This document shows, in pieces, positions 27,806 through 55,349 of a stretch of 64,000 bases of DNA. How positions within the stretch are numbered: the stretch's first letter is position 1; every line of letters begins with the position of its first letter. A model generated the notes under the pieces. It saw only the letters and a list, made by a program, of their open reading frames with translations, searched no databases and was not told the DNA's origin. The position numbers were made by a program, and so were the translations under genes. The DNA is from an uncultured Bacillales bacterium (GTDB lineage Bacteria > Bacillota_I > Bacilli_A > RFN20 > CAG-826): NCBI GenBank assembly GCA_946403545.1, contig CAMJAG010000001.1, positions 872-64,871 of the forward strand, in the 5' to 3' direction.

Positions 27806-27860
27806 ATTAATTCACCTTCATAGTTATTTTAGCATGTGTTTATTTATAAACAAAAAGAAA

Positions 27861-27895: not shown

Positions 27896-27902
27896 TAATC
27901 AA

Positions 27903-29411
27903 TTAGTCTTCGTCTTTCTTATCGTTTTTCTCTTTTACTTCTTTTAAGACCTTTGGGCCAAGATATCCAAGGAGGAGAGATTTTAGATCGATTCCAAGAG
28001 TTTTATTTAATCCAGCGAAGATTTGATCACCGTGTTGTTGAATTTCTTCTACGAGTTTTGTTTCATTACCAGAACCGTACATTGTAATTCCATCAATTTG
28101 AGATAATGCACTTGCGATTGGTTCTGCATATGCTCTTACTGTTTCTGGTAAGACACCAGAGTCGAGAATGAGTTTTAATGTAGCAGCGTCATTGAAGAGT
28201 TTCATAGCTTCTGCTTTTTCTTTTGTAGCTTTAGCTTCTGCGTTACCTTTTGCTTCAATACCAGCAGCTTCTGCTAAAGCAGCTTGTTTATTAGCTTCAG
28301 CTTCGAGTTTGACAGCTTCTGCTGCTTTTTCTCTAGCAATTCTTTGAGCTTCTGCTTCAACTTTGACTTTTTCAGCTTTTCTTTGAGCTTCAAGAAGTTC
28401 TGCTTCTGCAGCTTTTTGTCTTCTATAAAGAGTTGCTTCAGCTTCTTTTTCAGCAGCGTATTTTTCAGCATCTGCTTTCTTGTTAATTTCTGCTGTTAAT
28501 TTCTTTTCTGTAAGTTCAACTTCTTTATTTCCAAGTTCAACTTCTCTTTCTCTCTTAGAAATTTCAGCGTTAACTGTTGCAGTGTTGATTTCTTCTTGTC
28601 TCTTTTGTTCTTGAATCTTGTATGCTGCATCTGCGTCTGCTCTTGCAGTATCAGTTTTAATCTTTAATTCAGCTTCTTTTAATGCGTATTCAGTATTCTT
28701 TTCAACAATGATTGTCTTAGAATTGACTTCTGCTTCATTTGCTTCTTGAGCAGCTTTTGCTCTTGCAATACTTACATCTCTATCAGCGTTTGCTTTAGCA
28801 ATTGCAGCTTCTTTTGAGATTTGAGCGATGTTATCAATACCTAAGTTTTCAATAACATGATTGCCATCTGAGAAGTTTTGAATGTTGAAGTTAACTAATT
28901 CCAAACCTAATTTAGACATATCTGGAATAACATTTTCTTTAACAGCTTCTGCAACACCTTTTCTATCTTGTACTAATTGACGAATGCCAACTGTACCAAT
29001 AATTTCACGCATGTTACCTTCAAGAACTTGTTTGACTTGTTCAATTAAGTCAGCTTTATTCATTCCTAAAGTTGCTTCGAATGCTCTTTCTAGTAATGCT
29101 GGATCACTAGAGATTTTTAAGTTTGCGACACCATCAACATTGATGTTAATGAATTCGTTTGTTGGAATTGATTCACGTGTTTTAATGTCAACTTGGAAGA
29201 CTTTGAGGGATAATCTATCCTTTCTTTGCAAGAAAGGTAATTTCCATCCTGCTCTTCCTCTTAATATTTTTCTTTTGCCTAAACCAGAGATCATGACTGC
29301 TTCATCTGGTCCTGCTTTAGTGTATGAGCAGAGAATAAAGATAAGTAATAATACTGCTACAACTACACCAATTACAACGAATGCTACCCACATAATACTG
29401 TCCTCCTTCAT
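27903..29411 (-). CDS. Flotillin-like SPFH/band-7 protein (FloT/YuaG-like)
   Basis: N-terminal TM anchor and an SPFH domain, followed by an extended Ala/Glu/Lys-rich coiled coil. Confidence 0.85.
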   Translation of the reverse strand: MKEDSIMWVAFVVIGVVVAVLLLIFILCSYTKAGPDEAVMISGLGKRKILRGRAGWKLPFLQRKDRLSLKVFQVDIKTRESIPTNEFININVDGVANLKISSDPALLERAFEATLGMNKADLIEQVKQVLEGNMREIIGTVGIRQLVQDRKGVAEAVKENVIPDMSKLGLELVNFNIQNFSDGNHVIENLGIDNIAQISKEAAIAKANADRDVSIARAKAAQEANEAEVNSKTIIVEKNTEYALKEAELKIKTDTARADADAAYKIQEQKRQEEINTATVNAEISKREREVELGNKEVELTEKKLTAEINKKADAEKYAAEKEAEATLYRRQKAAEAELLEAQRKAEKVKVEAEAQRIAREKAAEAVKLEAEANKQAALAEAAGIEAKGNAEAKATKEKAEAMKLFNDAATLKLILDSGVLPETVRAYAEPIASALSQIDGITMYGSGNETKLVEEIQQHGDQIFAGLNKTLGIDLKSLLLGYLGPKVLKEVKEKNDKKDED

Positions 29412-38998: not shown

Positions 38999-39829
38999 AT
39001 GAATAATGAAACAAATAAAAATGAATTAGAGAATGAGAAAGTTTATATTTTCATTTCGCATTCTCATAAAGATATAGAAAAAGTAAGAAAAATTAGAAAT
39101 TATTTAGAGAGTCTTGATTGTGAACCAATTCTTTTCTTTTTAAAAAGCAAAGATGATGAAGATGAGATAATTCAACTTATCAAAGACGAGATTGATGCTA
39201 GAGTTTGGTTTATTTATTGTAGATCTATAAATGCATCTAAATCTAAATGGGTTAATGATGAAGTAACATATGTTGAGCAAACAGGTAAAAACAACATAGT
39301 TATAGATATCGATGGATGCCTAGATGAAAATGGAGAATTAAAAAATAGCGTTAAAAATAAACTTAATGTCATTATTAACGGATTTAGAAACTTACAACAA
39401 TTGTATATTTCTTATTCACACAAAGACTCTGTTGAAGTTCTTCGTATTGTCCAGTTTTTAAAAAGATATGGTGTTGATTTGTTTTATGATGACATGACAC
39501 ATTTTGGATCAGATTGGAAACATTCTATTCATAATCAAATTGTTAAATCGCCATATTTTCTGGTTTTTTTAAGCAAACAATCCATTAATTCACATTTCAT
39601 TTATGATGAAATAAAGCTAGCACAATACTTTAATAAAGAAATAATTCCCGTAATTCTTTATAACAATATTAACGATTATTATTCAGTCATTGAATCAGAT
39701 GTTTTCCAAAAGAATTTTGCATACTTTTTAGTCTGTGAATTCGATACTTCTAGTGATGTTCAATTCAAAGTGTCCTCATTTAGACTGCTAAACACATTAT
39801 TAGAGCATTTCTTTACGGATTTTGAATAA
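38999..39829 (+). CDS. Tandem TIR-TIR domain protein
   Basis: Two TIR domains: the first carries VYIFISHSHKDIEKV, the second LYISYSHKDSVEV. 276 aa with no other domain. Confidence 0.8.
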   Translation: MNNETNKNELENEKVYIFISHSHKDIEKVRKIRNYLESLDCEPILFFLKSKDDEDEIIQLIKDEIDARVWFIYCRSINASKSKWVNDEVTYVEQTGKNNIVIDIDGCLDENGELKNSVKNKLNVIINGFRNLQQLYISYSHKDSVEVLRIVQFLKRYGVDLFYDDMTHFGSDWKHSIHNQIVKSPYFLVFLSKQSINSHFIYDEIKLAQYFNKEIIPVILYNNINDYYSVIESDVFQKNFAYFLVCEFDTSSDVQFKVSSFRLLNTLLEHFFTDFE

Positions 39830-41746: not shown

Positions 41747-43099
41747 CTATTTCTTAAATCCTACACAAACAAAGCGGTTAACTGCGTACCAAAAATCATT
41801 TCTAGAGAAACGATATTGGAGTTGCGTTAACAAATCTTCCATTTCATTGAACTCTGCTTTAGTTTGCTCATTTTCGTTTGCGATTAATTGAGCTTTAAAA
41901 TAATTCAATCTATAAGCAAAGCTTACTTTATAAAGACCTAATTTCTCTTCATAAGACATATGAGATGTTTCTGTAACAGTGCAATGCATTTTAACTTTGT
42001 TAAATCCTTCATGGACTAACCAAGAATAAAGTTTTCTACCATTGTTTCTATCAGACATTCCTTCAAGAGAATAAGATTTCTTTAAGACTTTTTCTATAAG
42101 CTCATCATCTCCATAAGAAATCTTACTGCCATCATCACTACCTCTAACAATAATCATTCCGCCTTTATTCATAAGAGCCTTTAAATTCTCTAATGCTTTT
42201 TCAGGATTTGTTAGATGATGGAGGACTAAGAAACAAGAAACAACATCAAAGCCTTTAATGCCCTTTTGCTTCATTATTCCCTGCATTTCCTCCATAAATG
42301 TTGGACTTTCAATATTTAATTGATAGAAAGAGAACTTACTATTTTTATTATTTTTATTTGCTTGTTCAATAGCACTTTCACTAATATCGATTCCCACTAC
42401 TTTAGTGTATTTTGCTTTTCTAAAAGCTTGTCTAGTTACATATCCTTGAGCGCAACCAACATCTAGAACTGTGTAATTGTTTTTGTCTAAATACATGTCT
42501 AAAATGCGTTGGTTTTCATCATCATATCTAGATCCTTGGCTTTTTAATCTTTCTGATTCATTAGTGAAATCAAATTCATAAATAGACCATCTTCCTTTGT
42601 AATCAATGCAATCTTTTGGTCTTGGTCTAGAAACTAAAAACCTATTAAACAATCTCTTTTGATAATCATTTACATCAAAAACATCACCAATTGGTTCACT
42701 ATGACAATCTCTAATTGCGTCAATTTCCTTTGGTAACTTTTTTGGATAATTAACTTTATCTAAGAATAAAACTAGAATATTTAATCCTTCAGTTTTTAAA
42801 GCGGTTTCTATTTCTTGTCTAACCCAGTCATCTTTTTTAAATATTCTCTTAGAAAATGTATCTGGAGTTACAAGAAGAATAAAGTCTTTGGAATTATGGA
42901 TTGCATTAGTTAACTGAGGTGGAAACATACCACCTTGAATTGATACCTTATCAAAGAAACTTAGATAACCATTATCCATCAAATTTCTATATAAAAGATA
43001 CGTTGGATATAATCCATCACTTCTTCTATATGAAATGAAAACATCATATATAAAATCTTTTCTCTTAATTTGAGTGTTTTTATTAATTTCTTCAGGCAT
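41747..43099 (-). CDS. TIR domain fused to a class I SAM-dependent methyltransferase
   Basis: N-terminal TIR (FIYDVFISYRRSDG ... ILLVTPD) and a C-terminal Rossmann MTase (motif I VLDVGCAQGYVT, motif IV-like DVVSCFLVLHHL). Confidence 0.8.
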   Translation of the reverse strand: MPEEINKNTQIKRKDFIYDVFISYRRSDGLYPTYLLYRNLMDNGYLSFFDKVSIQGGMFPPQLTNAIHNSKDFILLVTPDTFSKRIFKKDDWVRQEIETALKTEGLNILVLFLDKVNYPKKLPKEIDAIRDCHSEPIGDVFDVNDYQKRLFNRFLVSRPRPKDCIDYKGRWSIYEFDFTNESERLKSQGSRYDDENQRILDMYLDKNNYTVLDVGCAQGYVTRQAFRKAKYTKVVGIDISESAIEQANKNNKNSKFSFYQLNIESPTFMEEMQGIMKQKGIKGFDVVSCFLVLHHLTNPEKALENLKALMNKGGMIIVRGSDDGSKISYGDDELIEKVLKKSYSLEGMSDRNNGRKLYSWLVHEGFNKVKMHCTVTETSHMSYEEKLGLYKVSFAYRLNYFKAQLIANENEQTKAEFNEMEDLLTQLQYRFSRNDFWYAVNRFVCVGFKK

Positions 43100-43198: not shown

Positions 43199-45580
43199 AT
43201 GTATCCTGAATTACTTGCTATTTTCATTATTACTGGAGTTGTTGAACTCGTTTTAATAGGTGTATTTTTTTATAACCTAATCAGATATAGATATCTTGGT
43301 AATAAATATTTTTACGTAACTGTAAGTGTATTAGTTCTTTTGATGTATTCAACATTCGTCAATAGATCATCAGATCTTTCTATTTCTATGTTTGGAAACA
43401 TAGTGTTTGACACTATTGCGGCAGCAGTAGGTAAAGTTGATACTGAAAAGATTTCTTGGCTGTTTTTACCGGGCGAATGGAATAAATGGCTAGTAATTTT
43501 CTACTTTATCGCCTCATATACAACATTCGCATTCTTATCCATCACAGTTATTCTTAACTTTGCAAAACTCTTCTTAAATGCATTTATTTTCTATAAAAGA
43601 CGAATTATAAATGGAGCAAATGTGTACTATTTGTTCACAGATTCTAGAAATGAAACAGTAATTCCTTTAGCCACTAAACTATTAGATGAAACAAAAGGTC
43701 GTAAAAACTCAGTTAAAGTTTTCGTTTCTAGAGCATCTTTAAAAACTCAAGAAGGTAATGAATTTAGAGATATGTTAGTGGGCTTAGGCATTCCTGTTCA
43801 AGCTGAAAAATTCTCATACAGGATGGCTAGAAAGATCTTTAATTCTAGATACTTCAAACTACATCTTTTTGATAAGCAACAATCGTTTATTTACTTACTT
43901 TTCTCAAATGACGAAACCACTACAAAAGTGGCAACTGATTTCAAAACAGCGATTCAAAAGAATCGTAAGTTTAAAAAAATTAACGACTTTGTAACTCTTT
44001 TAAAGGAAACAAAAGACAAAGATAAATTAGAGAAATTAAAAGAGAACTTTAATGAGAAAGAATATGATTTATTACAAAAAATCCAAATCTTTGTCACTTA
44101 TCAAGAAACAGATTTAGATATTCTCCATAACTTCTCTGGAGAGACATTGCATATCATGAATACTCTTTCTAAGTACGACATGATTGCTTCTAGATTTGTA
44201 TTTGATAATCCAATCTCTCAATTAGTGGACTTAAACAACATCAAACTTAAAGAAGACAATAAACATTTAAATGTTACACTCCTTGGTTTTGGTGTTATTG
44301 ATAGAGCAATATTTGAAAGAATGACATTCTCTTATCAACTTTATGGAGATAATATTAACAAAGTTAATTACCATGTTTTAGATAGAGATGCTGATTCTTT
44401 AATTAAACCTTATGTAAACGAATATACAGATAGAAATAACAGTGTTTATCTATACTCTATCGACTCCGCTTTCGATGGAGAAGATTTAAGACACTACGAA
44501 ACAATTGATAGATATATCTCATCATTGCAAAACGATCCAAACCGTTTCCAAGATGATGGTTTTGAAATCTTTGTTATTTCAGTCATAAACTCAAATAACG
44601 ATTTAAATATCGCGCTTAACTTAAGAAGAGCTATCTTAAAATACTTCAATGATAGATGTGAACAAGTTGTTATTTACGTCAGAGTTGCAGAAAGACTCAT
44701 TGGAGAACAATTCAGAGGTTCAAATCTTTCATACACATACGAAACTCTCTCTCATATTCACGAAGTAAAAGACTTCAATAAGAAATCTGATGTAGAGAAA
44801 GAAGCATACTTCAACTCATTCAAGGACGAGGAAGAAAGAAAAGCAGCAGAGAAAAGATTAATTAAAGATTTAAAAGCACCTATCATTCTCTTTGGTAATG
44901 ATGCAATTATGTCCACATATCTTGCTAGAGAACATAAATACTTCATGGGATTCGCTGAAAACGCTTGGAAATCCTACCAATTAGAACAAGCTTATAACAA
45001 TTATTCTGAAACTCAACTTGATAGATTATGGTTAAGACAAAATAAACAAGAAGTTAAAAATAACACTGATTATGTTCTTTCACTTAGAACAAAGCTAAAC
45101 TTATTTGGCTACAAACTAAATCTAAATAAACAAGAAAACCAATACTTAATGGTTCCTGGTGATGATGTTTCAATTCTTACTTCAGGTGAAAATGAAGAAA
45201 CATTCCTTGAAAGAACAAAACTTAAAGATGAAACTGGTGATGTTGCAAAAGTTCTTAAGATTGCTGATATGGAACATAACCGCTGGTTACAATCCAATAA
45301 CCAAAGATTTAGATATTTATCTAAAGATTACACAAAGGTCGAGGATCAAGAACTATTTGGAGTGAATAAATACACCAATGAAAAAGAAATCACAAGGAAA
45401 TATAACGACAATACACAACACATTTGTATGGTCACTAATGAGGGATTAAGAGACTTCTACAATTATGTTGGAAAGAAAAATCCTGAATATAAAGATGTCG
45501 CTTTAAAACTTGTGTACACAAACGATATTGTTCAGTTAAGAACGATAATCAAAAATGGAACAGAACAAAAGAATAAATAA
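43199..45580 (+). CDS. Membrane protein with four N-terminal TM helices and a ~650-aa cytoplasmic domain of unknown function
   Basis: 793 aa with a hydrophobic N-terminus and no recognisable motif in the soluble part. It is followed by a terminator. Confidence 0.55.
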   Translation: MYPELLAIFIITGVVELVLIGVFFYNLIRYRYLGNKYFYVTVSVLVLLMYSTFVNRSSDLSISMFGNIVFDTIAAAVGKVDTEKISWLFLPGEWNKWLVIFYFIASYTTFAFLSITVILNFAKLFLNAFIFYKRRIINGANVYYLFTDSRNETVIPLATKLLDETKGRKNSVKVFVSRASLKTQEGNEFRDMLVGLGIPVQAEKFSYRMARKIFNSRYFKLHLFDKQQSFIYLLFSNDETTTKVATDFKTAIQKNRKFKKINDFVTLLKETKDKDKLEKLKENFNEKEYDLLQKIQIFVTYQETDLDILHNFSGETLHIMNTLSKYDMIASRFVFDNPISQLVDLNNIKLKEDNKHLNVTLLGFGVIDRAIFERMTFSYQLYGDNINKVNYHVLDRDADSLIKPYVNEYTDRNNSVYLYSIDSAFDGEDLRHYETIDRYISSLQNDPNRFQDDGFEIFVISVINSNNDLNIALNLRRAILKYFNDRCEQVVIYVRVAERLIGEQFRGSNLSYTYETLSHIHEVKDFNKKSDVEKEAYFNSFKDEEERKAAEKRLIKDLKAPIILFGNDAIMSTYLAREHKYFMGFAENAWKSYQLEQAYNNYSETQLDRLWLRQNKQEVKNNTDYVLSLRTKLNLFGYKLNLNKQENQYLMVPGDDVSILTSGENEETFLERTKLKDETGDVAKVLKIADMEHNRWLQSNNQRFRYLSKDYTKVEDQELFGVNKYTNEKEITRKYNDNTQHICMVTNEGLRDFYNYVGKKNPEYKDVALKLVYTNDIVQLRTIIKNGTEQKNK

Positions 45581-45586
45581 CCTATG

Positions 45587-45615
45587 AAAAGCCATAGAAC
45601 TGGCTTTTCTTTTTA
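45587..45615 (+). terminator. Intrinsic terminator after the 793-aa membrane protein gene
   Basis: AAAAGCCAtagaacTGGCTTTT followed by CTTTTTAC. Confidence 0.55.
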
Positions 45616-45694: not shown

Positions 45695-46618
45695 ATGATT
45701 ACAGAAATTCATAAGAATTATTCTGCTTTTCGAGAAATGTTGTTAGCCACAACTGCTTTAAGCAACCGTTCTAGTAAGAAATATGATGACGATTGCAAAG
45801 CAATCATTGATTTCATCGGAGAAGCATATGGTCTAGAAAAAGACCTCGTAGAATATTGTAAAAAGGTCATTTTAGATGAACTAGTTACAATATCTACTGA
45901 CCAAGATATCCGCGCTTTCGTAAATTCACATACCGCTGACAGTGAATTAGAAGAATTAGACTCTTTATTAAGCGCTAAATGTGATGTTATTGGAGTTATT
46001 AGAAACTTTGGAGAAGTTAGAAGTCCTCAATTAAGTGAGACTTGGTTTGACTATAGTCATAGCAATCCATATTATCCAGAAATTAGATATCAACAATTAT
46101 CTATCGCTGCTTCCACAGGTAATGTAGTAGCAAATAAGATCGTTGGTATTCTTTCTGTTTTAGGTATTGGATGCGAAGCTACTAGAGAAAAGGTTCTTTC
46201 TGGAGTTTATAGACTTAGACAATGCGCTATTTGGGGAGACATTTCTTCTCTAATTATGATTAGACAAGTTTATAGAATCTTAGAAATGAAAGAACAAGTA
46301 AAACTCTATGATGAATTAGTGTCATTAGTACCTTTCATGAAAGAAGGAAGAACAGTAATTCCTCAAAGAATTGCAGAGAAAATCTCTAGAGAAGCAATAG
46401 AAACATTCGCAATTATCTGTTCTATTAAACAAGACATTATCTTAAATCAACATAAGTTCTACATAGATTATTCATTCGTTGAAGTTATGTTACTTAAAGA
46501 AGTTGATTACTATGATAAACTCCACTTCATTAATAAATATGACGCTCAAGAGTGGAAAGAAGTTACTAACTCATCATTTAATCCAAATAAGAAGATTGGA
46601 TTTAAGATTGGAGAATAG
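45695..46618 (+). CDS. Hypothetical protein, first gene of the ATPase-ClpR/ClpP operon
   Basis: 307 aa, alpha-helical, with no recognisable domain. The C-terminus ends in ...KKIGFKIGE (an IGF tripeptide). It sits 3 nt upstream of the ATPase gene. Confidence 0.5.
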   Translation: MITEIHKNYSAFREMLLATTALSNRSSKKYDDDCKAIIDFIGEAYGLEKDLVEYCKKVILDELVTISTDQDIRAFVNSHTADSELEELDSLLSAKCDVIGVIRNFGEVRSPQLSETWFDYSHSNPYYPEIRYQQLSIAASTGNVVANKIVGILSVLGIGCEATREKVLSGVYRLRQCAIWGDISSLIMIRQVYRILEMKEQVKLYDELVSLVPFMKEGRTVIPQRIAEKISREAIETFAIICSIKQDIILNQHKFYIDYSFVEVMLLKEVDYYDKLHFINKYDAQEWKEVTNSSFNPNKKIGFKIGE

Positions 46619-46621
46619 ATT

Positions 46622-48586
46622 ATGAAAAGAAGACCATATTCTGAACAAGTATCTCAAAAATACATTGATCAAAATCTTGAAAACACTCAAATAATGTCCT
46701 TCCTTGAATATAAAGGTAAAGGCTACGCTAAATACTTATTTGATGATTTAGCAAAAACTGATATCAAAGGATTCCCATTCTCTAGTGATTTTGTATCTTC
46801 TAAAGGGAAATCATATTCCTTTATTGATTTTGAAAATCTAAGTGATAAAGAAAAAGCGGATTGTAAACTTAGATTCTTCTATTTACCTAATTATCATGAG
46901 TTATATATCGGTACTACTGGTTCTGGTAAAACTACAGGATGTATTGAACCACAAATCAGAGCGATATCCACTCAAAAGAATAAAGCTAACTTATTTATTA
47001 CTGACCCTAAAGGTGAGTTATTTGAACATAATGGTAAATACTTAAAAGACCAAGGTTATAACGTATTTGTTCTTAACTTTAGAAACTTAGGTAGAACTCA
47101 TACATGGAATCCACTTAAAGAAATGTATGAAAAACAAATGGAATCTCTCACTATTGGAAAGAATAGTAAGAAATGTAATTGTCCAGTAGATAAGTCACTA
47201 GCGTTAATGTCTGAAAAGAGTAAATATCAAGGCACATATATTGCTTATAAACACATGGCATTTGCAACACAAGAAGACTTTGATAAATACGTGAATATTG
47301 AAACTTATTTAAATAAATCCAAAGTTTCTTCATTAGTTAACCAATTATGTGACTGTATCTTTAGTGAAGATAAATCCACTACAGATAGAACTTGGAGTGA
47401 TGGTGCTAGAGGATTATTCCATGGTATTTTATTGTCCATGTTAGAAGAAGCTGTTTTACCAGGAAGTAAGTTTAGCGAACAACATATGACATTAAAGACA
47501 GTTAACGATATCTTCAATTTAATTAGAGAAGGTAGCGAAACTCGCGATTCATATGGAGATCACTACACTAACGAAGAAATGCATGAGAAGATGGTAGACT
47601 TCTTGCATGGTAAATCATCTATTTGTATGAGCAAGTTAAATAATATTATTAAGACTGCTCAAACAACGAGAAAAGGGTTTTTATCAACATTCTTATCCAC
47701 TACTGAAAAATGGATGCAAGGTCACATCTATCAATTGACAAGTCATACATCTATTTCTCTAGAAGATAATGAACATCCTTGGGCGGTATTTGTATCCACT
47801 AGAGACTATGATAAATCAGATAATGTTATCGCTGGTTTATTCATTGACTGGGTATATAGACAATCTCTACAAGCTGTTGAAGAGAAACGTAAACTCGGTT
47901 TAGAACCTAGACCAATTCACTTCTTATTAGATGAATTCGCTAACATTCCAAGAATCCCTGACTTTGATAATAAGATTGCTACTGCTAGAAGTAGAAATAT
48001 GTGGTTCCACTTATTCGTTCAATCTTATGATCAATTAGATTTAATCTATGGAGAAGAAACAGCCTCTATTATCGTAGATAACTGTAACCAACAAACATTC
48101 TTAGGTTCTCAATCTCAAGAAACTAAAGAAAGATTCTCTAGAGAATGTGGTAAAAAGACTGTTACATCCTTAGAAGGTGTTATTCATGGTGAAGTTAACG
48201 ATGTTGTAGAAATCCCAGTTGTGCCTATCACAAGTCTAGATCAAATCAAACCTGGTGAAATGTACACTAAACGTATTTATTCTCCAATATTAAGATGTAG
48301 CTTTATCAGAAGCTATCAATGCGCTCAACAAGGTATCTTTAAAAACTTCTGGAATAATAAAGCGGAAGAAGAACTTATTCCACTTAACTATGTTATTCCT
48401 GATGATTTAGAACATTCTTATTTACCAGTATTAAGCGCTATTGAAGTAAGAAGATTATGTCCACCTAGACCAAGAAATCCTCGTAGTAGAGTTCAATACG
48501 AAGATGAAGACATGGAAGCAGAAGATCCTGAAGACTTTGAAGACTTCTTACATGAAGTTCAACTTAAGATGAAAGGAAAGAAGTAG
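46622..48586 (+). CDS. Soluble VirD4/TraG/TraD-type (type IV coupling protein-like, FtsK-HerA superfamily) P-loop ATPase
   Basis: Walker A IGTTGSGKTT, the T4CP DPKGE motif (ITDPKGELF), Walker B HFLLDEFANIP, and QSYDQLDLIYGEE. There is no N-terminal TM anchor, and the C-terminal tail is acidic. Confidence 0.8.
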   Translation: MKRRPYSEQVSQKYIDQNLENTQIMSFLEYKGKGYAKYLFDDLAKTDIKGFPFSSDFVSSKGKSYSFIDFENLSDKEKADCKLRFFYLPNYHELYIGTTGSGKTTGCIEPQIRAISTQKNKANLFITDPKGELFEHNGKYLKDQGYNVFVLNFRNLGRTHTWNPLKEMYEKQMESLTIGKNSKKCNCPVDKSLALMSEKSKYQGTYIAYKHMAFATQEDFDKYVNIETYLNKSKVSSLVNQLCDCIFSEDKSTTDRTWSDGARGLFHGILLSMLEEAVLPGSKFSEQHMTLKTVNDIFNLIREGSETRDSYGDHYTNEEMHEKMVDFLHGKSSICMSKLNNIIKTAQTTRKGFLSTFLSTTEKWMQGHIYQLTSHTSISLEDNEHPWAVFVSTRDYDKSDNVIAGLFIDWVYRQSLQAVEEKRKLGLEPRPIHFLLDEFANIPRIPDFDNKIATARSRNMWFHLFVQSYDQLDLIYGEETASIIVDNCNQQTFLGSQSQETKERFSRECGKKTVTSLEGVIHGEVNDVVEIPVVPITSLDQIKPGEMYTKRIYSPILRCSFIRSYQCAQQGIFKNFWNNKAEEELIPLNYVIPDDLEHSYLPVLSAIEVRRLCPPRPRNPRSRVQYEDEDMEAEDPEDFEDFLHEVQLKMKGKK

Positions 48587-48587
48587 T

Positions 48588-49133
48588 ATGGCTAACGATA
48601 ATTTTGAAGAATTATATAAACAAGGAATTATAGTCATCACTACTGGTATAGAAGATATGGATGTTACTAGTAACATCATCTTATCTCTTCTTAATTGGAA
48701 CAGAATTGATCCAAAGAAAGAATTACAACTCTATATCTCTTCAGTATCTGGAGACTACCTAAATGTCCTTTCTATTTATGACGCTATCCAATCAATTAGT
48801 AATCCAATTTCAGGATATTGTATTGGTTTAGTTGGTAGTTGCGCTGCACTACTTTTAGCGGCGTGTAACAAAGGTAAACGCTACATTTTAGAGCATAGTC
48901 AAATTGCTTTAAGAGAGATTTCTGGCATTATTCCTGGTGGAAGTAAACAACAAACAGAAATCGAAATTCTCGCAAACGAATTAGCGTCTCAAAGAGAAAC
49001 ATTTGAATCTCTTCTTTCAAAACATACAGGTCAATCCGTTGAAGAAATACACCACCTTTGCTATGAAAACACTTATTTAACTCCTGAAGAAGCTATTAAA
49101 AAAGGCTTCGTAGATAAGATTGTGAGGAAATAA
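48588..49133 (+). CDS. ClpP-fold protein lacking the catalytic His and Asp (ClpR-like inactive paralog), N-terminally short
   Basis: It aligns to ClpP (YISSVSGDYLNVLSIYDAIQSI...GLVGSCAAL). The Ser position is kept, but His (IHQP becomes LREI) and Asp (ERD becomes YEN) are replaced. It lacks the N-terminal axial-loop segment. Confidence 0.7.
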   Translation: MANDNFEELYKQGIIVITTGIEDMDVTSNIILSLLNWNRIDPKKELQLYISSVSGDYLNVLSIYDAIQSISNPISGYCIGLVGSCAALLLAACNKGKRYILEHSQIALREISGIIPGGSKQQTEIEILANELASQRETFESLLSKHTGQSVEEIHHLCYENTYLTPEEAIKKGFVDKIVRK

Positions 49134-49135
49134 TT

Positions 49136-49648
49136 ATGGATAACAGAATTATTACTTTAAATGGTGAAATCAACGAAGGAAGCGCGATGAAAGTTATTCT
49201 TTCATTACTTCAAATGGATGCTGAAAATAGAAAACAACCAATATATCTATATATCAACTCTCCTGGTGGAAATATTGTTCATGGATTAGCAATATATGAT
49301 GTTATGAATAACATATCCGCTCCGGTATATACAGTATGTAATGGCATGGCAGCATCGATGGGTAGTTTCTTACTCTCTTGTGGTGCTAAAGGACATAGAT
49401 ATTGTTTAAAACACTCTCGTATTCTTATCCATCAACCACTTGTCTATAACAACTATGGAAGAATGATTGAAGAAAGCGAAGCTCAACAAATCGCCGCTAA
49501 TTTAAGAAAAGATAGAGATAAATTAGAACAAATCATGGCAGACAATTCTGGTAAAGACATTAAAGTCTTCCATAAGGATTGTGAAAGAGACCATTGGATG
49601 AGCGCTCAAGAAGCTCTAGACTATGGTCTAATAGATAAGATTATCTAA
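49136..49648 (+). CDS. clpP: ClpP-family serine peptidase with an intact Ser-His-Asp triad but missing the N-terminal axial loops
   Basis: GMAASMGS (Ser), ILIHQP (His) and CERDHWMSAQEALDYGLIDKI (Asp) are present. It is 170 aa, against ~195-200 for canonical ClpP. Confidence 0.8.
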   Translation: MDNRIITLNGEINEGSAMKVILSLLQMDAENRKQPIYLYINSPGGNIVHGLAIYDVMNNISAPVYTVCNGMAASMGSFLLSCGAKGHRYCLKHSRILIHQPLVYNNYGRMIEESEAQQIAANLRKDRDKLEQIMADNSGKDIKVFHKDCERDHWMSAQEALDYGLIDKII

Positions 49649-49655
49649 GAAAAGA

Positions 49656-49680
49656 GGAAGTCCTAGACTTCCTTTTATTT
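49656..49680. terminator. Bidirectional terminator between the two convergent operons
   Basis: GGAAGTCctaGACTTCC stem followed by TTTTATTT; the IMPase stop codon lies within the T-run. Confidence 0.55.
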
Positions 49681-50433
49681 CACTCTATTAAGTATTAACT
49701 CAAGTGTTTCTTGGTTATTTGCAACCACTAATGAATCGCTACCAAATTCGTATTCTTTTTTATTGATGGTTTTATAAACCATTCCAGCTTCTTTTATCAA
49801 TAAAAGACCTGGTGCTATATCCCATATGTAATTGTAGTAGCAGATATATGCTTGTGCTTTTGATGTGGCTAATGTAGTAAAGTCTACACAAGCCGCTCCT
49901 AAAAGTCTCGTTTTAAGGAAATTCCCTTGTAAATCCTTCATTAATTCAAATTGTTTATCAAATGAAATGGTTTTGTTATCTTTATAAAAATCACTAGATA
50001 ATAAAACTCCATCTTCATGTTTAATATCTTTATTTACTTTAATAGGTTTTCCATTAAGGAAAGCTCCACCATCTTTCTTAGCAAGATATAACTCATCCTT
50101 ATATGGCAAATAGATTATTGATAACACTACTTCTTTCCTTTGGAAAACCGCTAGTTGAATACCACAAAGTTCTATGCCCATTGAATAGTTACAAGTGCCA
50201 TCAAGTGGATCGATAACAAAGGTTAGTTCATCTGTTAGTGGTTCGTTTTTACTTTCTTCTGCGATTATTTTTGCTTGAGGGAATTCTTTTTTAATAGCGT
50301 TAACAAAATAATCATTAAGTTCTAAATCCGCTTCTGAGAGTAAGTCATTAATAGATTTATGTTTAATTGATTTATGTTGCTTAAAGAATATGTCTTTTGA
50401 AGATAAAACTAGTTGTTTTAAATACTCTTCCAT
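49675..50433 (-). CDS. Inositol monophosphatase / CysQ-family phosphatase
   Basis: EES metal site, DPLDGT and WDIAPG motifs; 252 aa. It sits 4 nt downstream of the TIR-NACHT gene. Confidence 0.8.
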   Translation of the reverse strand: MEEYLKQLVLSSKDIFFKQHKSIKHKSINDLLSEADLELNDYFVNAIKKEFPQAKIIAEESKNEPLTDELTFVIDPLDGTCNYSMGIELCGIQLAVFQRKEVVLSIIYLPYKDELYLAKKDGGAFLNGKPIKVNKDIKHEDGVLLSSDFYKDNKTISFDKQFELMKDLQGNFLKTRLLGAACVDFTTLATSKAQAYICYYNYIWDIAPGLLLIKEAGMVYKTINKKEYEFGSDSLVVANNQETLELILNRVK

Positions 50434-50437
50434 GCGA

Positions 50438-53284
50438 TTATCCCTTCAAATCTCTAATAAATTTCTCAACATGTTTAATCCATGTTAATACTGATTCATT
50501 TTGTAAGTATTCGTATTTTCTTGTTACTTTTTGTGCTTCGCAAATCAAATTATATAAAGCTTGTGCTTCAGTTAATTCGATTGGAATATTTAGTTTTTCC
50601 GCAATTTCAATTGCTTCAGAACAAGGAGCTTCCGCTTTTGCAAGTAAGGAAGTATCTCCATTATAGTTTACTAAATAGTAAAGAGAAGTTAAGAAATAGA
50701 TTTGACCTTGGTCATATAAATCTTTATTCTCTTTAGCACATTTCATTGCTTCTTCTTTTAATTCCATGATCCTTGCTTCATTGCCACGATTAACAATTTC
50801 ATAGAACATAGATGTATATAAGAATCTTGTGTAATATCTATCATGTTGGTTATATAAGACATAGATTGCTTCCGCTTTATTAAGTTTATCTTTAGCTTTA
50901 GCTAAATCCATATGCCATATACATGCATCAGCGTATACACGATAGTCTTCCGCTAAGAAGAGGTGATCTCCAATTTGAGTGCCATCTTCCATTTCTTCTT
51001 TAACTCTTTTATCAAGAAGCGCGACAGCATTATCTGCTGCTTTATAGCAGTTTTCTAAATCAAGCCTTCTACAATAAACTTTTGATAAAGTTAAGTTAAT
51101 CAAAGATTCTTCGTATAAATCGCCTGCTTCTTTAGCGTCTTTGATCGCACCATCACTCATTCCTATGAGTTCGTCGAATAGCACCATCTTGCGATAAACA
51201 AGCATTGCCATTCTTTCAAATTCACTACGAATTTCTATGTCTAATTCGCCTAAATCATGTTCTTTGATGAATTCTTTAATGTCATTAAATGCTTCAGTAA
51301 ATGATAAGGAAATATAGTGGAATTGAATAACTCCCATATCATAGTTCACATCATCACTTGGATCTCTATTCTTTAAGAACTTACCAAATCCTGCTTCTTT
51401 AAGTTTGATAAATAAGCCAGCGTTATAGATTGCTTGTCTATATTTGATAAAGATTTTTGTAAAACATTCAGACTGATAGATTTCAAACGCTTCATAATCA
51501 TCATCCTTATAGATGTAATTGATGTTATCAATGTATTCAAATAATCCTTCATAAAGAGTGTAAAGTTTTGATTTAATACACACTCTTAAAAAGTCAAAAT
51601 TCTTTAATAGTTTACAAAGTTTTTCTGTCTTTTTAAGTGCTTTTAAGGCTTTTTGATAGTCTAAGATGACATAAGGATTGTTCTTCCATTCACCTAATTC
51701 AATTTGCTTTTCAATATATTCAAGCAAGATCTTATAACCATCTCTTCTAGAGACACAATATTTTGCAGGACATTCGTTAGATTCACTTAACCAGTCTAAA
51801 ATTGATTTATGTCTACTCTTAAGAGTGCCATCTTCAATAATTACAAAGTAATTAGATACTATATCGATATTCTTTCTAATTTCAGATTCTGATAGACCTG
51901 TTGCATCCGCTAAAAACTCCACTGTTGGAGGAACGCTTGTAGCGAGTAATAAAGATATAATCTTTCTAATATCTTCATAATCATCTGGTGCTTTAGGGAA
52001 AATTCTATCAAACCAGATTAAGTAGTATGAATAAATTCCGTCAGGGAATTCTCTAACGTTATCTAAAGAGTATTCACCACTCTTAATTAGACTAACAATA
52101 CTCTTAGCATATAAGAATGATCCATGTGTTTTTCCAAGCAAAATCCTCAGTGTTTCTGCATCGAATTTATAATTTGAGAGTGCTTGGTCATAATACTTTT
52201 TAATATCCGCAACGTTTTCTTCATTGTTTTCTAACATGCTGAAAACGTGACAACTTGAGAAGTAACTAACAACATTCTTTTGAGGTCTAGTTGAACATAA
52301 AATCTTTAACCAAGAAGGTAAAGTGTTTTGATAAGTCACTATCATCTCAGCAATTTCATTTTTATTATCCAAAACTGCTTCATCTAATGCATCGATAACA
52401 ATTATTTGAGGGTTCTTAAAAGTAACTTTGTTACCTACTTCAATAAAGAACAACTCAAATAATCTTTTAGCGTCTAAATTATCTATATTTGCTTCTCTAG
52501 TTAAAATCTTTTTAATTTCGAGATTATAATCTTCGTTACGACCAGCGATTTGTGCTGCTAAGTTTTTAATAATACTTCTAGCGTCAGTCTTAGTTCTATT
52601 ACCAAAGCTACAGAAATGGATACCTGCAACATTGTTATGGAAATTAATAGTTAACATAGCGCACATTGCAGTCTTTCCAATACCTGGAGCAGCTTGTAAT
52701 AAATAGATTGGTAAACTATCTGGTTTATTAATCCATTTTTCTACATCCGCGAAGAAAGAATCTCTACCAACAAAGTTGAGTGTATGATGAGTAATTTCAA
52801 AAGCGTCAATAGCTTGGACTTCTTTAGAAATATCAAAACCAGTATCGAAGTAGCCTACTTCTTCTTCGTTTCTAACGATCTTTAGTAATCTTTGATAGCA
52901 ACTTTCGTATACATCTTCAATGATTGAATTATCCGCTGCGACAGCGTTTTTAATCATGATTCTTTGTAAACGAACAATTGAAAGAGGAACATAAGAGTCA
53001 TCTAACATGATAGGAACAATTGTTTTCTTATATTCCACTGCTCTAGCGAGTTCATTTAAACAATATCCGTCTAGAGAAACAGACTTTTTAGATACAAAGA
53101 AAACAAAATGACTACATCTTTGAATCGCGTTATCAATTTTAGTTTCCCAATCACCTTGATATAGATAGTCCTTATCAAGGAAGACTTCATAAACTTCTTC
53201 TTTGCGTAAATCAGTAACAACTTTATTGACTACGTTTTCTAAAGTTTGATGTCCATAGGATATGAAAATAACTTGTTTATCCAT
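50438..53284 (-). CDS. TIR-NACHT-TPR protein (bacterial STAND/NLR-like NTPase with a TIR effector domain)
   Basis: N-terminal TIR (VIFISYGHQ...FVFFVSKKS), a NACHT Walker A LLQAAPGIGKTAMCA and Walker B IIVIDALDEAV, and C-terminal TPR-like helical repeats; 948 aa. Confidence 0.85.
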   Translation of the reverse strand: MDKQVIFISYGHQTLENVVNKVVTDLRKEEVYEVFLDKDYLYQGDWETKIDNAIQRCSHFVFFVSKKSVSLDGYCLNELARAVEYKKTIVPIMLDDSYVPLSIVRLQRIMIKNAVAADNSIIEDVYESCYQRLLKIVRNEEEVGYFDTGFDISKEVQAIDAFEITHHTLNFVGRDSFFADVEKWINKPDSLPIYLLQAAPGIGKTAMCAMLTINFHNNVAGIHFCSFGNRTKTDARSIIKNLAAQIAGRNEDYNLEIKKILTREANIDNLDAKRLFELFFIEVGNKVTFKNPQIIVIDALDEAVLDNKNEIAEMIVTYQNTLPSWLKILCSTRPQKNVVSYFSSCHVFSMLENNEENVADIKKYYDQALSNYKFDAETLRILLGKTHGSFLYAKSIVSLIKSGEYSLDNVREFPDGIYSYYLIWFDRIFPKAPDDYEDIRKIISLLLATSVPPTVEFLADATGLSESEIRKNIDIVSNYFVIIEDGTLKSRHKSILDWLSESNECPAKYCVSRRDGYKILLEYIEKQIELGEWKNNPYVILDYQKALKALKKTEKLCKLLKNFDFLRVCIKSKLYTLYEGLFEYIDNINYIYKDDDYEAFEIYQSECFTKIFIKYRQAIYNAGLFIKLKEAGFGKFLKNRDPSDDVNYDMGVIQFHYISLSFTEAFNDIKEFIKEHDLGELDIEIRSEFERMAMLVYRKMVLFDELIGMSDGAIKDAKEAGDLYEESLINLTLSKVYCRRLDLENCYKAADNAVALLDKRVKEEMEDGTQIGDHLFLAEDYRVYADACIWHMDLAKAKDKLNKAEAIYVLYNQHDRYYTRFLYTSMFYEIVNRGNEARIMELKEEAMKCAKENKDLYDQGQIYFLTSLYYLVNYNGDTSLLAKAEAPCSEAIEIAEKLNIPIELTEAQALYNLICEAQKVTRKYEYLQNESVLTWIKHVEKFIRDLKG

Positions 53285-53966
53285 GTACTTTTTCCTCTAA
53301 AGCAATGTTATAACCCGCTTTCTTGCCTTCATTTAATGTTTCTTCATTTGCTAAATGCATAAGAGTAATTTTCTTTCTCTCTTCCATATTGAAGGCGTTA
53401 TTTAATACTGAAATATGAGTATGTATCATCGCATTAAGAGAAGTTGTAACTTCATGATACATTTCATCTATTTTTCCTGATTTAAGTTCTCTAACTGCTC
53501 TATCAAGTAGTTCAGATGTATCTCCTGAATAGTAGAAATTAATTTCTTTAGAATATACAAAATATGCATAACTACCAGGAATATGTGGAACTTCAACAGG
53601 TTCCACTTTTAAATCTTTGATTAAAGAGTAGTCATTATATATTTCAAAATCAAAATCTAAACCAGTTAATTGGAGTAGTTTTTTAAGATTATCTTTTAAA
53701 GGATAGAAGACTTTTACCGTCTTTTTTGAGAAGAAATGAATCCAATATAAGAATGGTTCAAGGCTTCCAATATGATCACTATGAAGATGGGTAATTAAAA
53801 CAACAATTTCATCAACATCATCTAAAAGATGAAGTGCTAAAATCTTGTCACAAATTTTCTCGCCCATATCAAAAATATACAATTTGCCATTTTGTTTAAA
53901 ATAAGCACAATTGTTATTTGTGAAATAGTTAAAAGCGGCTCCTACACCTAAAAATTTTAAATACAT
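53277..53966 (-). CDS. Metallo-beta-lactamase-fold hydrolase
   Basis: HxHxDH motif (ITHLHSDHIGS); 229 aa. It overlaps the TIR-NACHT start by 8 nt. Confidence 0.7.
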   Translation of the reverse strand: MYLKFLGVGAAFNYFTNNNCAYFKQNGKLYIFDMGEKICDKILALHLLDDVDEIVVLITHLHSDHIGSLEPFLYWIHFFSKKTVKVFYPLKDNLKKLLQLTGLDFDFEIYNDYSLIKDLKVEPVEVPHIPGSYAYFVYSKEINFYYSGDTSELLDRAVRELKSGKIDEMYHEVTTSLNAMIHTHISVLNNAFNMEERKKITLMHLANEETLNEGKKAGYNIALEEKVHG

Positions 53967-53968
53967 AA

Positions 53969-54226
53969 TTATTTAATTATCTTATAGCCTTCTTTAAGAA
54001 TACATTTAATCGTAGCAAGAGCGGTATTCCTATCATATTCTTTTTCTTCTTCAGGAAGTTCATCATAAGGCACTAAACAAGGAGTTTGTTTTTTAGTGTC
54101 ATTTCTTTCTGGACCATAGGTCCATCCATCTTTGATTCTTCCTTCCATCCAAGTTATATGGACTTGTTCCGCTATTATTTCGATAAGTTGTTTTATATCT
54201 TCAGTGATAACAATATCTTTTTCCAT
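53969..54226 (-). CDS. RyR-domain (ryanodine-receptor-like) small protein
   Basis: 85 aa matching the bacterial RyR-domain pattern: HITWMEGRIKDGWTYGP...TPCLVPYDELPEEEKEYDRNTA. Confidence 0.55.
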   Translation of the reverse strand: MEKDIVITEDIKQLIEIIAEQVHITWMEGRIKDGWTYGPERNDTKKQTPCLVPYDELPEEEKEYDRNTALATIKCILKEGYKIIK

Positions 54227-54228
54227 AA

Positions 54229-54666
54229 TTATTCGTCTTCTAGTATTTTTTGAAATAAGCTGTATTCATCTCTAGTTATTGTATCATCACTAGCAGTTAG
54301 AGCGATACCATATAAAACAACAGCAGTTTTAGTATCTTCATCAAATTCTTCTTTGATATTATTTACCATTGCTTTAACAAAAGCTTCTTTATCTCCAAAT
54401 TGAGTAGCATGGAAGAATTCTCTATAAGAAACATCTAATCCTGTTGCTTCTTTAAAGAATCCATATTCCTTAACAGCGCAATCTTTATCAGCAGAAACGT
54501 ACATTCTAGTTAAGTTAATAACAATATTAGCGATTCTATCTTTGTGATAATCTTGTTTTCTAAGATTACGATAAAGTCTTTCTAAAGCTTGTCTACCTAA
54601 CTTTGCTCTTTCAGCATCTTCTAAATTAACAACTTCATGCATGACTCGTTCTACTTCTTTATTCAT
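54229..54666 (-). CDS. TerB-like domain protein (paralog A)
   Basis: 145 aa, helical, with VSADKDCAVKEYGFF and a C-terminal ASDDTITRDEYSLFQKIL, similar to the tellurite-resistance TerB fold. It is paralogous to 54903..55349. Confidence 0.5.
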   Translation of the reverse strand: MNKEVERVMHEVVNLEDAERAKLGRQALERLYRNLRKQDYHKDRIANIVINLTRMYVSADKDCAVKEYGFFKEATGLDVSYREFFHATQFGDKEAFVKAMVNNIKEEFDEDTKTAVVLYGIALTASDDTITRDEYSLFQKILEDE

Positions 54667-54681
54667 AATATGTTCTTCCTA

Positions 54682-54903
54682 TTATTTTTTACTTTTTAGA
54701 TTACAAGCATTTGGGAAATTAATTTCCCACGCTGCTGCTCTTGCTATTTGAAGTAATTTATATTTCTTATCTTCATCAGTTATCTCTTTGATAACTTCTT
54801 TAGTATTTGGATTTAACAAAAATATTTTGGATTCTTTAACTCCAAATACTGAATCTCTTACTTCGTATAAGTGTCTTCCGTTACGAAATTGAAATGGTTT
54901 CAT
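54682..54903 (-). CDS. Small hypothetical protein
   Basis: 73 aa; overlaps the upstream gene by 1 nt. Confidence 0.35.
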   Translation of the reverse strand: MKPFQFRNGRHLYEVRDSVFGVKESKIFLLNPNTKEVIKEITDEDKKYKLLQIARAAAWEINFPNACNLKSKK

Positions 54904-55349
54904 TATGCAAGCAATTTGTCGATTAAATCTTGTTCTGCAACTGTTAATGTGTGGTCACTTGCTAAGAAAGTAACTGCAAATAAGACCATACTTGTTCTTG
55001 TTTTGTTATCTGCTTTTTTCATTAAGTTAGCAAATTCATTAACATAATCATCATCTAAGCCACCATTGGTCATGTCATAGAATGTATCTGTATCCATATC
55101 AATACCAGTGACTGCTCTAAAGAAAGAATATTCTGCTCCACTACATTTGCCATCAGCAGAAACTAAAATTCTAACTAAGTGAATAATTAAGTTAGTAATT
55201 TCATCCTTATTACAACCGAGTTCTTTTAAACCTCCGATAAAGTCGTTTAAAGCATGTGCAGCAATATTAACTTTTTCTTGTGGTTCTTCGTTTAAAATGT
55301 TTTGGCACATTTTTCTTAATTCAGCATCCATATGAAATCCTCCCATCAT
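54903..55349 (-). CDS. TerB-like domain protein (paralog B)
   Basis: VSADGKCSGAEYSFF and a C-terminal ASDHTLTVAEQDLIDKLL. The likely start is an internal Met near 55334. Confidence 0.5.
   Translation of the reverse strand: MMGGFHMDAELRKMCQNILNEEPQEKVNIAAHALNDFIGGLKELGCNKDEITNLIIHLVRILVSADGKCSGAEYSFFRAVTGIDMDTDTFYDMTNGGLDDDYVNEFANLMKKADNKTRTSMVLFAVTFLASDHTLTVAEQDLIDKLLA

Follow-up and report, generated by a model that had tools for sequence, protein, structure and literature searches.

Can an ATPase of the VirD4/TraG family act as the motor of a ClpP-type protease? The question is raised by four adjacent plus-strand genes at positions 45695-49648 of a 64,000-nucleotide (nt) stretch of DNA (hereafter the window; positions 872-64,871 of contig CAMJAG010000001.1, assembly GCA_946403545.1) from an uncultured Bacillales bacterium (RFN20; CAG-826). 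They encode a 307-residue protein, which we call W307, a VirD4/TraG-type ATPase, a ClpP-like subunit predicted to be inactive (ClpR) and a ClpP paralogue. A preliminary description, made from sequence alone, had proposed that the ATPase and the Clp pair form an unconventional ATP-dependent protease or a defence module. Its gene coordinates and tight spacing match the listing of open reading frames (ORFs) exactly, with intergenic gaps of 3, 1 and 2 nt, and all of the motifs it quoted (GTTGSGKTT, DPKGE, LLDEF, QSYDQLDLIYG, GMAASMG, IHQP, ERDHWMSAQEA and KKIGFKIGE) are present in the translations. We report that W307 and the ATPase constitute an obligate core to which the Clp pair is an accessory. 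The genomic evidence makes a strong case that the module is both real and unusual; the mechanism we infer, in which W307 would tether the ATPase to ClpP, is testable.

The core gene pair and its linkage to ClpP

Relatives of the ATPase number in the thousands. When one genome per species was scanned, at least 460 proved to encode it. Of these, the best 80 (34-64% identity) all belong to uncultured Bacillota of gut or rumen, comprising RF39/Enteromonas-like Bacilli, Erysipelotrichaceae, Acholeplasmatales, Christensenellales, Pumilibacteraceae, Stercoripulliclostridium and Acutalibacteraceae. ORFs were called in all loci and searched with the window proteins, giving a set of 75 loci. A W307 orthologue sits immediately 5′ of the ATPase gene, often overlapping it, in 67 of the 75, which come from different Bacillota families.

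The coupling of the ATPase to ClpP, proposed in the preliminary description, recurs across lineages. A ClpP-family gene is carried by 15 of the 44 loci that have at least 4 kb on both flanks (the well-flanked loci), and 13 of the 44 carry the pair; for a gene present at one to two copies per genome we estimate chance linkage at about 1-2%. At least five gene orders join ClpP-family genes to the core (Table 1). In the Acutalibacteraceae (L083, 8460-11803; L086, 134-3532) the gene of a full-length ClpP, its N-terminus normal, has a 4-8 nt overlap with W307, in the order ClpP-W307-ATPase, and in L058 (6719-11803) a full-length ClpP stands at the head of the operon. Clustering of the ATPases places the pair in every Bacilli-type member, a single truncated ClpP in the Mollicutes-like members and full-length ClpP in the Acutalibacteraceae; among the Christensenellales only some subclades have the pair. 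What does not stand is a fixed coupling, since the pair is facultative (about one third of loci) and pairs also occur without the ATPase. A reciprocal scan used a ClpR pattern from the Christensenellales subset, the full ClpR alignment being too divergent, and gave 14 metagenome loci. W307, or W307 together with the ATPase, adjoins the pair in four of them.

The module can be duplicated within one genome, because a Candidatus Enteromonas metagenome-assembled genome (MAG) carries a tandem ATPase-ClpR-ClpP-W307-ATPase arrangement (L010, 46-5702) and several other MAGs have two separate loci (e.g. L064/L067 and L043/L057).

The C-terminal tail of W307

W307 matches no Pfam, NCBIfam or PADLOC family. 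A similarity of its C-terminus to Tis1_ImmP (Tis1 is the immunity protein of a (p)ppApp toxin) lies below threshold (E 5e-4; 20.6 bits, cut-off 27) and was treated as noise. The AlphaFold2 model is all-helical, with a predicted local distance difference test score (pLDDT) of 92.5 and a predicted TM-score of 0.91; the last ~15 residues are disordered. Its structural relatives are solely Sel1-like and other helical repeats, with weak scores, and its weak profile matches are multi-repeat proteins that align to positions 130-200.

The disordered tail contains an Ile-Gly-Phe (IGF) tripeptide. Gly-302 and Phe-303 are at least 90% conserved across 38 homologues, whose tails follow the pattern W-K-x-x-T-N-S-S-x(3-6)-[KR]-Φ-G-F. 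The form [ILVMF]-G-[FL] is found within the final 20 residues of 64 of the 67 orthologues at the loci, many of which terminate exactly at GF. Of 53 full-length representatives at 50% identity from an exhaustive profile search, 45 have the motif within their final 22 residues. The preliminary description had allowed that the tripeptide may be a coincidence; this can be discarded, as it is the best-conserved part of the tail in this family. The tripeptide (L/I/V)-G-(F/L) is the motif that docks Clp ATPases into the hydrophobic (H) pockets of ClpP (PMC8745299). The W307 tripeptide fits this definition and lies on a low-pLDDT tail. The motif is equally conserved with and without nearby Clp genes, and its retention where they are absent suggests that the core can use ClpP encoded elsewhere. 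We note that in L058 a 554-residue protein upstream of the ATPase ends in ...PFGFGG and is perhaps a long analogue of W307.

The ATPase

The ATPase matches the Pfam families T4SS-DNA_transf (1.6e-37), TraG-D_C (8e-28) and TrwB_AAD_bind (5.3e-20); the best stretch of the last, an all-alpha domain, covers residues 401-517. Its predicted architecture comprises a nucleotide-binding domain, the all-alpha domain, a family-specific N-terminal region of ~90 residues and an acidic/aromatic C-terminal tail. The best curated model is NCBIfam NF045973 (VirD4-like, CD1115 family), where the score of 240.4 bits falls just short of the 250 cut-off; other VirD4, TraD and TraG NCBIfam models score far under their cut-offs. 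A phmmer search of PDB sequences gave no match. The Walker A and B motifs (GTTGSGKTT, DPKGE and LLDEF) and the Arg/Gln motifs are invariant across 24 homologues. Because all catalytic motifs are retained, the protein is probably an active motor. In a PADLOC scan it weakly matched mad8 (E 2.2e-10), an identity we set aside as reflecting P-loop similarity alone; searching the literature for MADS yielded nothing of use. The last 40 residues of the orthologues (L009-L088) vary in sequence and are usually acidic/aromatic (EDFEDF, DDFDF, WGVFDD). Such a tail is similar to the partner-binding one of F-plasmid TraD, and could be the element that binds W307.

Is this ATPase a conjugation gene? The maximum Kyte-Doolittle 19-residue mean is 1.03 and none exceeds 1.3 in 23 homologues, thus there is no hydrophobic segment, in keeping with the missing membrane anchor remarked on earlier. 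Likewise, no relaxase, type IV secretion system (T4SS) or integrase gene is present among the 35 annotated window ORFs between 18.3 and 63.8 kb, a scan that left out ORFs below 18.3 kb and a few within the range; the preliminary description had reported the same absence. Relaxase, VirB4, VirB6 and integrase are absent from the 25 families most often matched by 143 neighbour-family representatives. Nor are they present in the loci whose surroundings were annotated with Pfam, the one exception being a transposon-like insertion several kb away in L008, and relaxase and T4SS genes do not recur among the 75 loci. The notion that homologous ATPases are always accompanied by relaxase or T4SS genes therefore fails. 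No full-length relative is encoded on 72,556 plasmids. The best plasmid match, a CD1115-family type IV coupling protein (T4CP) of Bacillus thuringiensis pBMB68, is 28% identical over 67% of the length. As a positive control, the pBMB68 protein has two N-terminal transmembrane helices and lies in a MobP3-T4CP-TrbL-PrgI-VirB4 operon. With no transmembrane anchor, no relaxase or T4SS gene among the common neighbours and no full-length plasmid relative, the ATPase is, on these sequence criteria, not a conjugation gene. Viral contigs in IMG/VR hold relatives at 25-35% identity only, and a phage origin of the module was rejected on this ground.

The ClpR/ClpP pair

Both Clp proteins match Pfam CLP_protease (1.4e-39 for the 181-residue ClpR and 1.8e-58 for the 170-residue ClpP). 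Matches at E ≤ 1e-10 were obtained to 109 PDB ClpP chains, the best for the 170-residue protein being Helicobacter pylori ClpP, aligned from residue 28. In the alignment with Escherichia coli ClpP the 170-residue protein keeps Ser-His-Asp; the 181-residue protein has Ser-Arg-Asn, both His and Asp being lost. The triad is present in all 23 truncated-type ClpP orthologues and complete in none of 20 ClpR orthologues, in which the triad positions vary freely. The assignment of an active and a triad-deficient subunit made previously is thus borne out by alignment to the E. coli and Bacillus subtilis enzymes.

The N-termini of both subunits are short. ClpP lacks the first ~23 residues of mature ClpP, that is, the axial loop and most of helix A; ClpR lacks ~14 (the axial loop) and keeps R/K22-L23 of helix A. 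In E. coli precursor numbering the alignments start at residue 38 (ClpP) and 29 (ClpR), and the orthologues at 27-38 and 26-29, respectively, leaving aside over-extended ORF calls. Matches to the clpP model TIGR00493 begin only at its position 27 (ClpP) and 19 (ClpR) and score 180 and 115 bits, under the cut-off of 308.6. With PRK00277 the scores are 198 and 135 bits against 249, and ClpP falls under every NCBIfam ClpP cut-off. A start-site artefact was considered and rejected: each ORF opens at the earliest start available behind an in-frame stop, and over 20 orthologues share its length. The absence of the axial-loop segment from both proteins, as first described, therefore holds. Every dedicated pair consists of one subunit with an intact triad and one inactive subunit, both truncated at the N-terminus. 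The axial loop gates the pore and is required by AAA+ partners; from the alignments, its loss in both would fit a dedicated, differently gated peptidase. The H pocket is conserved only in part, with residues L48, Y62, F/Y112, L114 and L/I189 retained in ClpR and ClpP.

The signature CERD[NH]WM was dropped as a system-specific probe since it also matches ClpPs on viral contigs of 200-400 kb. These IMG/VR contigs (L097-L119; 26-411 kb, mostly 200-400 kb) encode ClpPs of ~220-230 residues that share the signature around the catalytic Asp (E 1e-33 to 1e-44), which may point to a phage-related ancestry for this lineage of ClpP. Separately, an orphan truncated pair (L125, 1241-3774; also L126-L128) lies beside proteins that, judged by eye from the translations, are DNA methyltransferase-like or have a C-terminal HNH-like motif.

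Proposed mechanism

Gene content, motifs, truncations, conservation and linkage lead us to propose that W307 is an adaptor which tethers a ring of the VirD4-like ATPase, via its IGF tails, to the ClpP chamber, and that the motor hands a polymer substrate to the protease. We put the probability of this reading at roughly 0.45. W307 would bind an ATPase oligomer, and its tails would insert into the hydrophobic pockets of the ClpP ring, much as ClpX docks with its IGF loops. The motor, a translocase of the FtsK/HerA/VirD4 class and not an AAA+ unfoldase, would then thread the polymer into the chamber; the substrate would be a protein, possibly DNA-bound. In the window and in all Bacilli-type relatives the chamber would be the dedicated heteromer of inactive ClpR and active ClpP. 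Where no dedicated pair is nearby, cellular ClpP encoded elsewhere would probably serve. Protein handling by an ATPase of this class is plausible, because T4SS substrates need unfolding by an unfoldase that is unknown, and the T4CP is among the candidate ATPases (PMC5826034). As to biological role, we lean slightly towards a conflict or stress function.

Several points weigh against this proposal. Neither Clp nor membrane-partner genes are found near 19 of the 44 well-flanked loci, hence the core can stand alone. Conversely, seven of the 14 loci from the ClpR scan (L122, L124-L128 and L130, of which L124-L128 share one context) contain the pair without ATPase or W307 within 3-4 kb upstream and ~9 kb downstream. 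The ATPase C-terminal tails are alike in Clp-linked and Clp-free loci, and the GF motif may bind other partners, such as the ATPase itself. Two classical pocket residues are replaced in the dedicated ClpP (F49 by D/N/Q and F82 by H/Y/N), thus docking could differ or be absent. VirD4-family ATPases, moreover, are best known as coupling proteins that recruit DNA and substrates, not as unfoldases.

An extended form of the proposal is possible, though on balance doubtful. The module would represent a new class of ATP-dependent chambered protease, in which a VirD4/FtsK-HerA hexamer is tethered by an IGF adaptor in trans to gate-less ClpR/ClpP or to housekeeping ClpP. Its targets might be incoming DNA-linked proteins (conjugative relaxases, phage terminal proteins), amounting to a nucleoprotein-directed defence. 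Such targets are conceivable since the motor descends from coupling proteins that recognise relaxase-DNA complexes.

Alternative explanations

A defence or abortive-infection system in which the same parts are linked without threading is, in our judgement, unlikely, and is the best of the alternatives. Here the ATPase would sense or translocate invading DNA or nucleoprotein, the W307 tail would switch ClpP as an activator of the acyldepsipeptide (ADEP) type or as a competitive inhibitor, and ClpRP with the RCK/RyR-like membrane proteins would be effectors that kill or arrest the cell. The window speaks for this: three TIR genes (Table 1), one of them in an operon with an Apyc1-like metallo-β-lactamase (MBL)-fold gene, surround the four genes. 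One is a TIR-methyltransferase fusion, a seemingly unusual arrangement that adjoins the module in four divergent genomes; its recurrence may reflect a functional tie beyond common island location. The closest relative (L135; ATPase 81% identical) has kept both the fusion and IMPase-like neighbours. Homologues of the TIR-STAND protein abut the core in L016 and lie directly 5′ of W307 in L059, type II restriction-modification and HicB-like genes adjoin the module in L001/L009, and the orphan pairs described above have methyltransferase-like and HNH-like neighbours. Accessories that can be swapped (ClpRP, families c3/c4, RyR, TerB-like) are typical of conflict systems; the tandem duplication in L010 and the weak mad8 match point the same way. 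Most loci, however, lie amid housekeeping genes (ligA-pcrA, lon-ysxC, uvrC-mutS2), and the 802-residue gene that adjoins some of them is housekeeping Lon, found with YsxC. The defence-island setting of the preliminary description thus stands for the TIR-rich window and a few relatives, but not for the majority. PADLOC families are few among the 143 neighbour-family representatives and several are housekeeping paralogues. A conventional Clp ATPase was considered as the partner too: three representatives match AAA_2 and three match DolB, and these may be the same proteins. In PADLOC-DB v2 neither W307, ClpR nor ClpP has a match and that of W793, the 793-residue membrane protein encoded upstream, is at chance level (Csm3, E 0.008), which leaves the ATPase as the sole matching component. 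This explanation also leaves the conserved motor and IGF tail unaccounted for where no effector is nearby. Judged from the best 80 genomes, the module occurs only in Firmicutes of gut and rumen that are abundant but uncultured (RF39-like Bacilli, Christensenellales and others); a role in defence or stress would make it a lineage-specific feature of gut communities.

It is improbable that the module is instead a membrane-associated translocation or processing apparatus, in which the ATPase would be anchored in trans by W793 and its relatives and move substrate to or across the membrane, with ClpR/ClpP as a processing or quality-control peptidase. W793 has no Pfam match, and neither it nor families c3 and c4 belong to a Pfam or NCBIfam family. 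By hhalign W793 matches c4 over its full length (99.4%, E 4e-21), c3 matches c4 (99.3%) and the C-terminus of c3 matches the RyR domain (96%), so W793 would belong to family c4, with c3 a paralogous family. W307 and W793/c3/c4 are thus two protein families currently without annotation. The two-helix anchor of canonical T4CPs is lost here and multi-spanning membrane proteins of this kind accompany the ATPase in 19 of the 44 well-flanked loci, often as two paralogues. They are present in 9 of the 15 well-flanked loci that bear Clp genes, and seven genome and four metagenome loci have ClpR, ClpP and c3 side by side on one strand, in this order. Yet such proteins are missing from 25 of the 44, and no secretion-channel, pilus or VirB4/VirB11-type gene is linked in the examined loci. 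The resemblance of W793 to a channel is also weak: its AlphaFold2 model (pLDDT 78.7) finds the Slo1/BK channel (transmembrane domain plus tandem RCK) as best Foldseek match in the PDB at E 5e-4, with a TM-score of only ~0.25. The IGF tail is again unexplained.

Finally, a decayed conjugative element, leaving an orphan coupling protein beside unrelated ClpP paralogues, is suggested by the T4CP family membership of the ATPase, whose closest curated model is the CD1115 family and whose nearest annotated relatives are plasmid T4CPs, but it is largely refuted by an intact W307-ATPase pair conserved in at least 460 species-level genomes with invariant catalytic residues, by the lack of recurrent relaxase, T4SS or integrase genes at the 75 loci and among the window ORFs that were scanned, by ClpP linkage in five gene orders and by the real CD1115-family gene being only 28% identical, membrane-anchored and inside a MobP3-TrbL-PrgI-VirB4 operon.

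Gene organisation and neighbouring genes

The four genes are bracketed by terminators, as had been claimed: hairpins with T-runs are found on either side (Table 1). The upstream one is terminator-like and would close the W793 gene and set the four-gene operon apart. The downstream palindrome, with T-runs on both sides, forms the boundary with a convergent minus-strand operon. That operon (49675-55349) has gaps of 2-4 nt or overlaps, and its genes run in the order TerB-like, 73-residue ORF, TerB-like, RyR, MBL, TIR-STAND and IMPase.

Table 1 Features of the window and gene orders of ClpP-family genes relative to the W307-ATPase core
Feature	Position	Strand	Description
Double-TIR protein	38999-39829	+	276 residues; ThsB_TIR at residues 18-106, TIR_2 at 136-222
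TIR-methyltransferase fusion	41747-43099	-	S-adenosylmethionine-dependent methyltransferase; also L135 884-2200, L016 20366-21670, L073 565-1914
W793	43199-45580	+	793-residue membrane protein; N-terminal transmembrane helices, two Rossmann/RCK-like domains, helical C-terminus with EHNRW
Hairpin and T-run	45586-45609	+	Intrinsic-terminator-like; GAAAAGCCA-TAGAAC-TGGCTTTTC, then TTTTTACTTT
W307	45695-46618	+	307 residues, all-helical; putative Sel1-like repeat core ~125-205, disordered C-terminal tail
Ile301-Gly302-Phe303 codons of W307	46595-46603	+	Conserved C-terminal tripeptide
VirD4/TraG-type ATPase	46622-48586	+	654 residues, soluble, P-loop
ClpR-like subunit	48588-49133	+	181 residues, ClpP fold, predicted catalytically dead
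ClpP paralogue	49136-49648	+	170 residues, Ser-His-Asp intact
Palindromic hairpin	49655-49673		Predicted bidirectional terminator; AGGAAGTC-CTA-GACTTCCT; TTTTATTT on plus strand, CTTTTCTT on minus strand
IMPase/CysQ-family phosphatase	49675-50433	-	An IMPase-like gene also flanks the module in L135
TIR-STAND(NPHP3_N)-TPR protein	50438-53284	-	Homologues at L016 and L059
MBL-fold Apyc1-like protein	53277-53966	-	Pfam Anti-Pycsar_Apyc1 6e-12, under cut-off
RyR-domain protein	53969-54226	-	85 residues; Pfam RyR 3.3e-26; 57% identity with family c10 by tblastn
TerB-like paralogues	54229-54666, 54903-55349	-	145 and 148 residues, 73-residue ORF between; Pfam TerB E 0.0025 and 0.031 (sub-threshold)
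Gene order 1			Clp pair downstream, same strand: window, L009, L012-L014, L016, L018, L020, L134, L135
Gene order 2			Clp upstream, same strand: L011; L010 (between tandem copies)
Gene order 3			Clp divergent upstream: L031, L036, L037, L046, L051, L052, L061, L085; metagenome L120, L121, L131
Gene order 4			Clp downstream past an inserted membrane-protein gene: L019, L059
Gene order 5			Full-length ClpP translationally coupled before W307 (L083, L086) or heading the operon (L058)

Among Bacilli-type loci, the RyR gene follows ClpP closely in L001, L004, L134 and L135 and is also present in L009, L012-L014 and L016; family c16, the TerB-like orthologues, adjoins c10 (RyR) in L009, L012, L013 and L016. 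In the window the RyR and TerB-like genes are displaced from ClpP by the co-operonic MBL, TIR-STAND and IMPase genes. The recurrence of W793-type, RyR and TerB-like genes indicates that the module extends beyond four genes. The IMPase, TIR-STAND and MBL genes are recurrent neighbours whose membership is uncertain. From its predicted content of a TIR-STAND protein and two putative nucleotide or phospho-sugar hydrolases, the minus-strand operon resembles a defence system based on signalling, with degradation of the signal built in.

In the Christensenellales other families occur immediately 5′ of W307, namely c5 (~165 residues; 12 loci, including L030 8417-8926) and c7/c12 (360-460 residues; L071 7526-8905, L047 7271-8356). 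None of the three has a significant Pfam match; they may be further accessory components. Upstream of the island, the minus strand of the window (26213-29411) encodes a tandem-PLD protein, cardiolipin-synthase-like or nuclease-like, and a 502-residue SPFH/Band 7 protein.

Comparison with known systems

With the T4CPs (VirD4, TraG, TrwB, TraD) the ATPase shares the Pfam matches to a P-loop nucleotide-binding domain and an all-alpha domain, as well as intact Walker motifs. It differs in lacking N-terminal transmembrane helices, of which the pBMB68 homologue has two, in its family-specific N-terminus of ~90 residues and in its setting, never being seen beside relaxase, VirB4 or VirB6 in the loci examined. 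If the proposed coupling is true, it bears on whether coupling proteins process or unfold protein substrates (PMC5826034).

A functional parallel would be ClpXP, ClpAP and ClpCP. As there, a ClpP-family chamber is combined with a partner that has (L/I/V)-G-(F/L) on a flexible element (PMC8745299), and a 6-to-7 symmetry mismatch would be expected. In contrast to these enzymes, the motor is of the VirD4/FtsK-HerA class and not AAA+, the tripeptide, instead of being carried by an ATPase loop, is on the C-terminal tail of a separate 307-residue protein, and the dedicated ClpP/ClpR lack the N-terminal loops that contact AAA+ partners and have F49 and F82 changed. If true, the proposal would make the docking pockets of ClpP addressable by an adaptor in trans. 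The W307 tail would be a putative natural, genetically encoded ClpP ligand, of relevance to ADEP-like activators and inhibitors. To our knowledge all described ATP-dependent chambered proteases (ClpXP, ClpAP, ClpCP, HslUV, Lon, FtsH and the proteasome) are driven by AAA+ motors. Should the coupling work as proposed, this would be the first chambered protease without one.

Adjacent active and inactive paralogues, implying a mixed complex, are also a feature of the heteromeric ClpP/ClpR and ClpP1P2 enzymes of cyanobacteria, plastids, Mycobacterium, Listeria and Chlamydia. Here, unlike in those enzymes, both subunits are truncated (170 and 181 residues), the ClpR triad positions are variable and the genetic partner is VirD4-like rather than ClpX or ClpC. 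Phage head-maturation proteases (NF045542) likewise have a short ClpP fold (~165 residues) without axial loops, and CERDxWM is also found in viral-contig ClpPs. The window ClpP nevertheless scores 198 bits on the cellular model compared with 82 on NF045542 (cut-off 120), and no capsid or phage genes are linked.

Defence modules that combine a ring ATPase with an effector include HerA-Sir2, HerA-DUF4297 and the ATPase-protease IetAS. Together with mad8 of MADS, they share with the present module a P-loop ring ATPase genetically coupled to an effector enzyme, some loci lying in defence islands. The present module departs from them in its ClpP-fold chamber as effector, its IGF-tailed adaptor and its many loci in housekeeping contexts. 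Proteasome activators (PAN, Mpa/ARC, Rpt) dock by C-terminal HbYX tails. The principle of a flexible hydrophobic C-terminal tail that inserts into end-face pockets of a chambered protease would be the same; the protease family and the motif are different, and the tail is on an accessory protein and not on the ATPase.

Full-text literature searches gave no description of a VirD4/TraG-ClpP module. Its parts come from known superfamilies; their combination, a soluble T4CP-derived motor, an IGF adaptor in trans, a ClpR/ClpP pair without axial loops and RCK/RyR-like membrane proteins, matches no described system.

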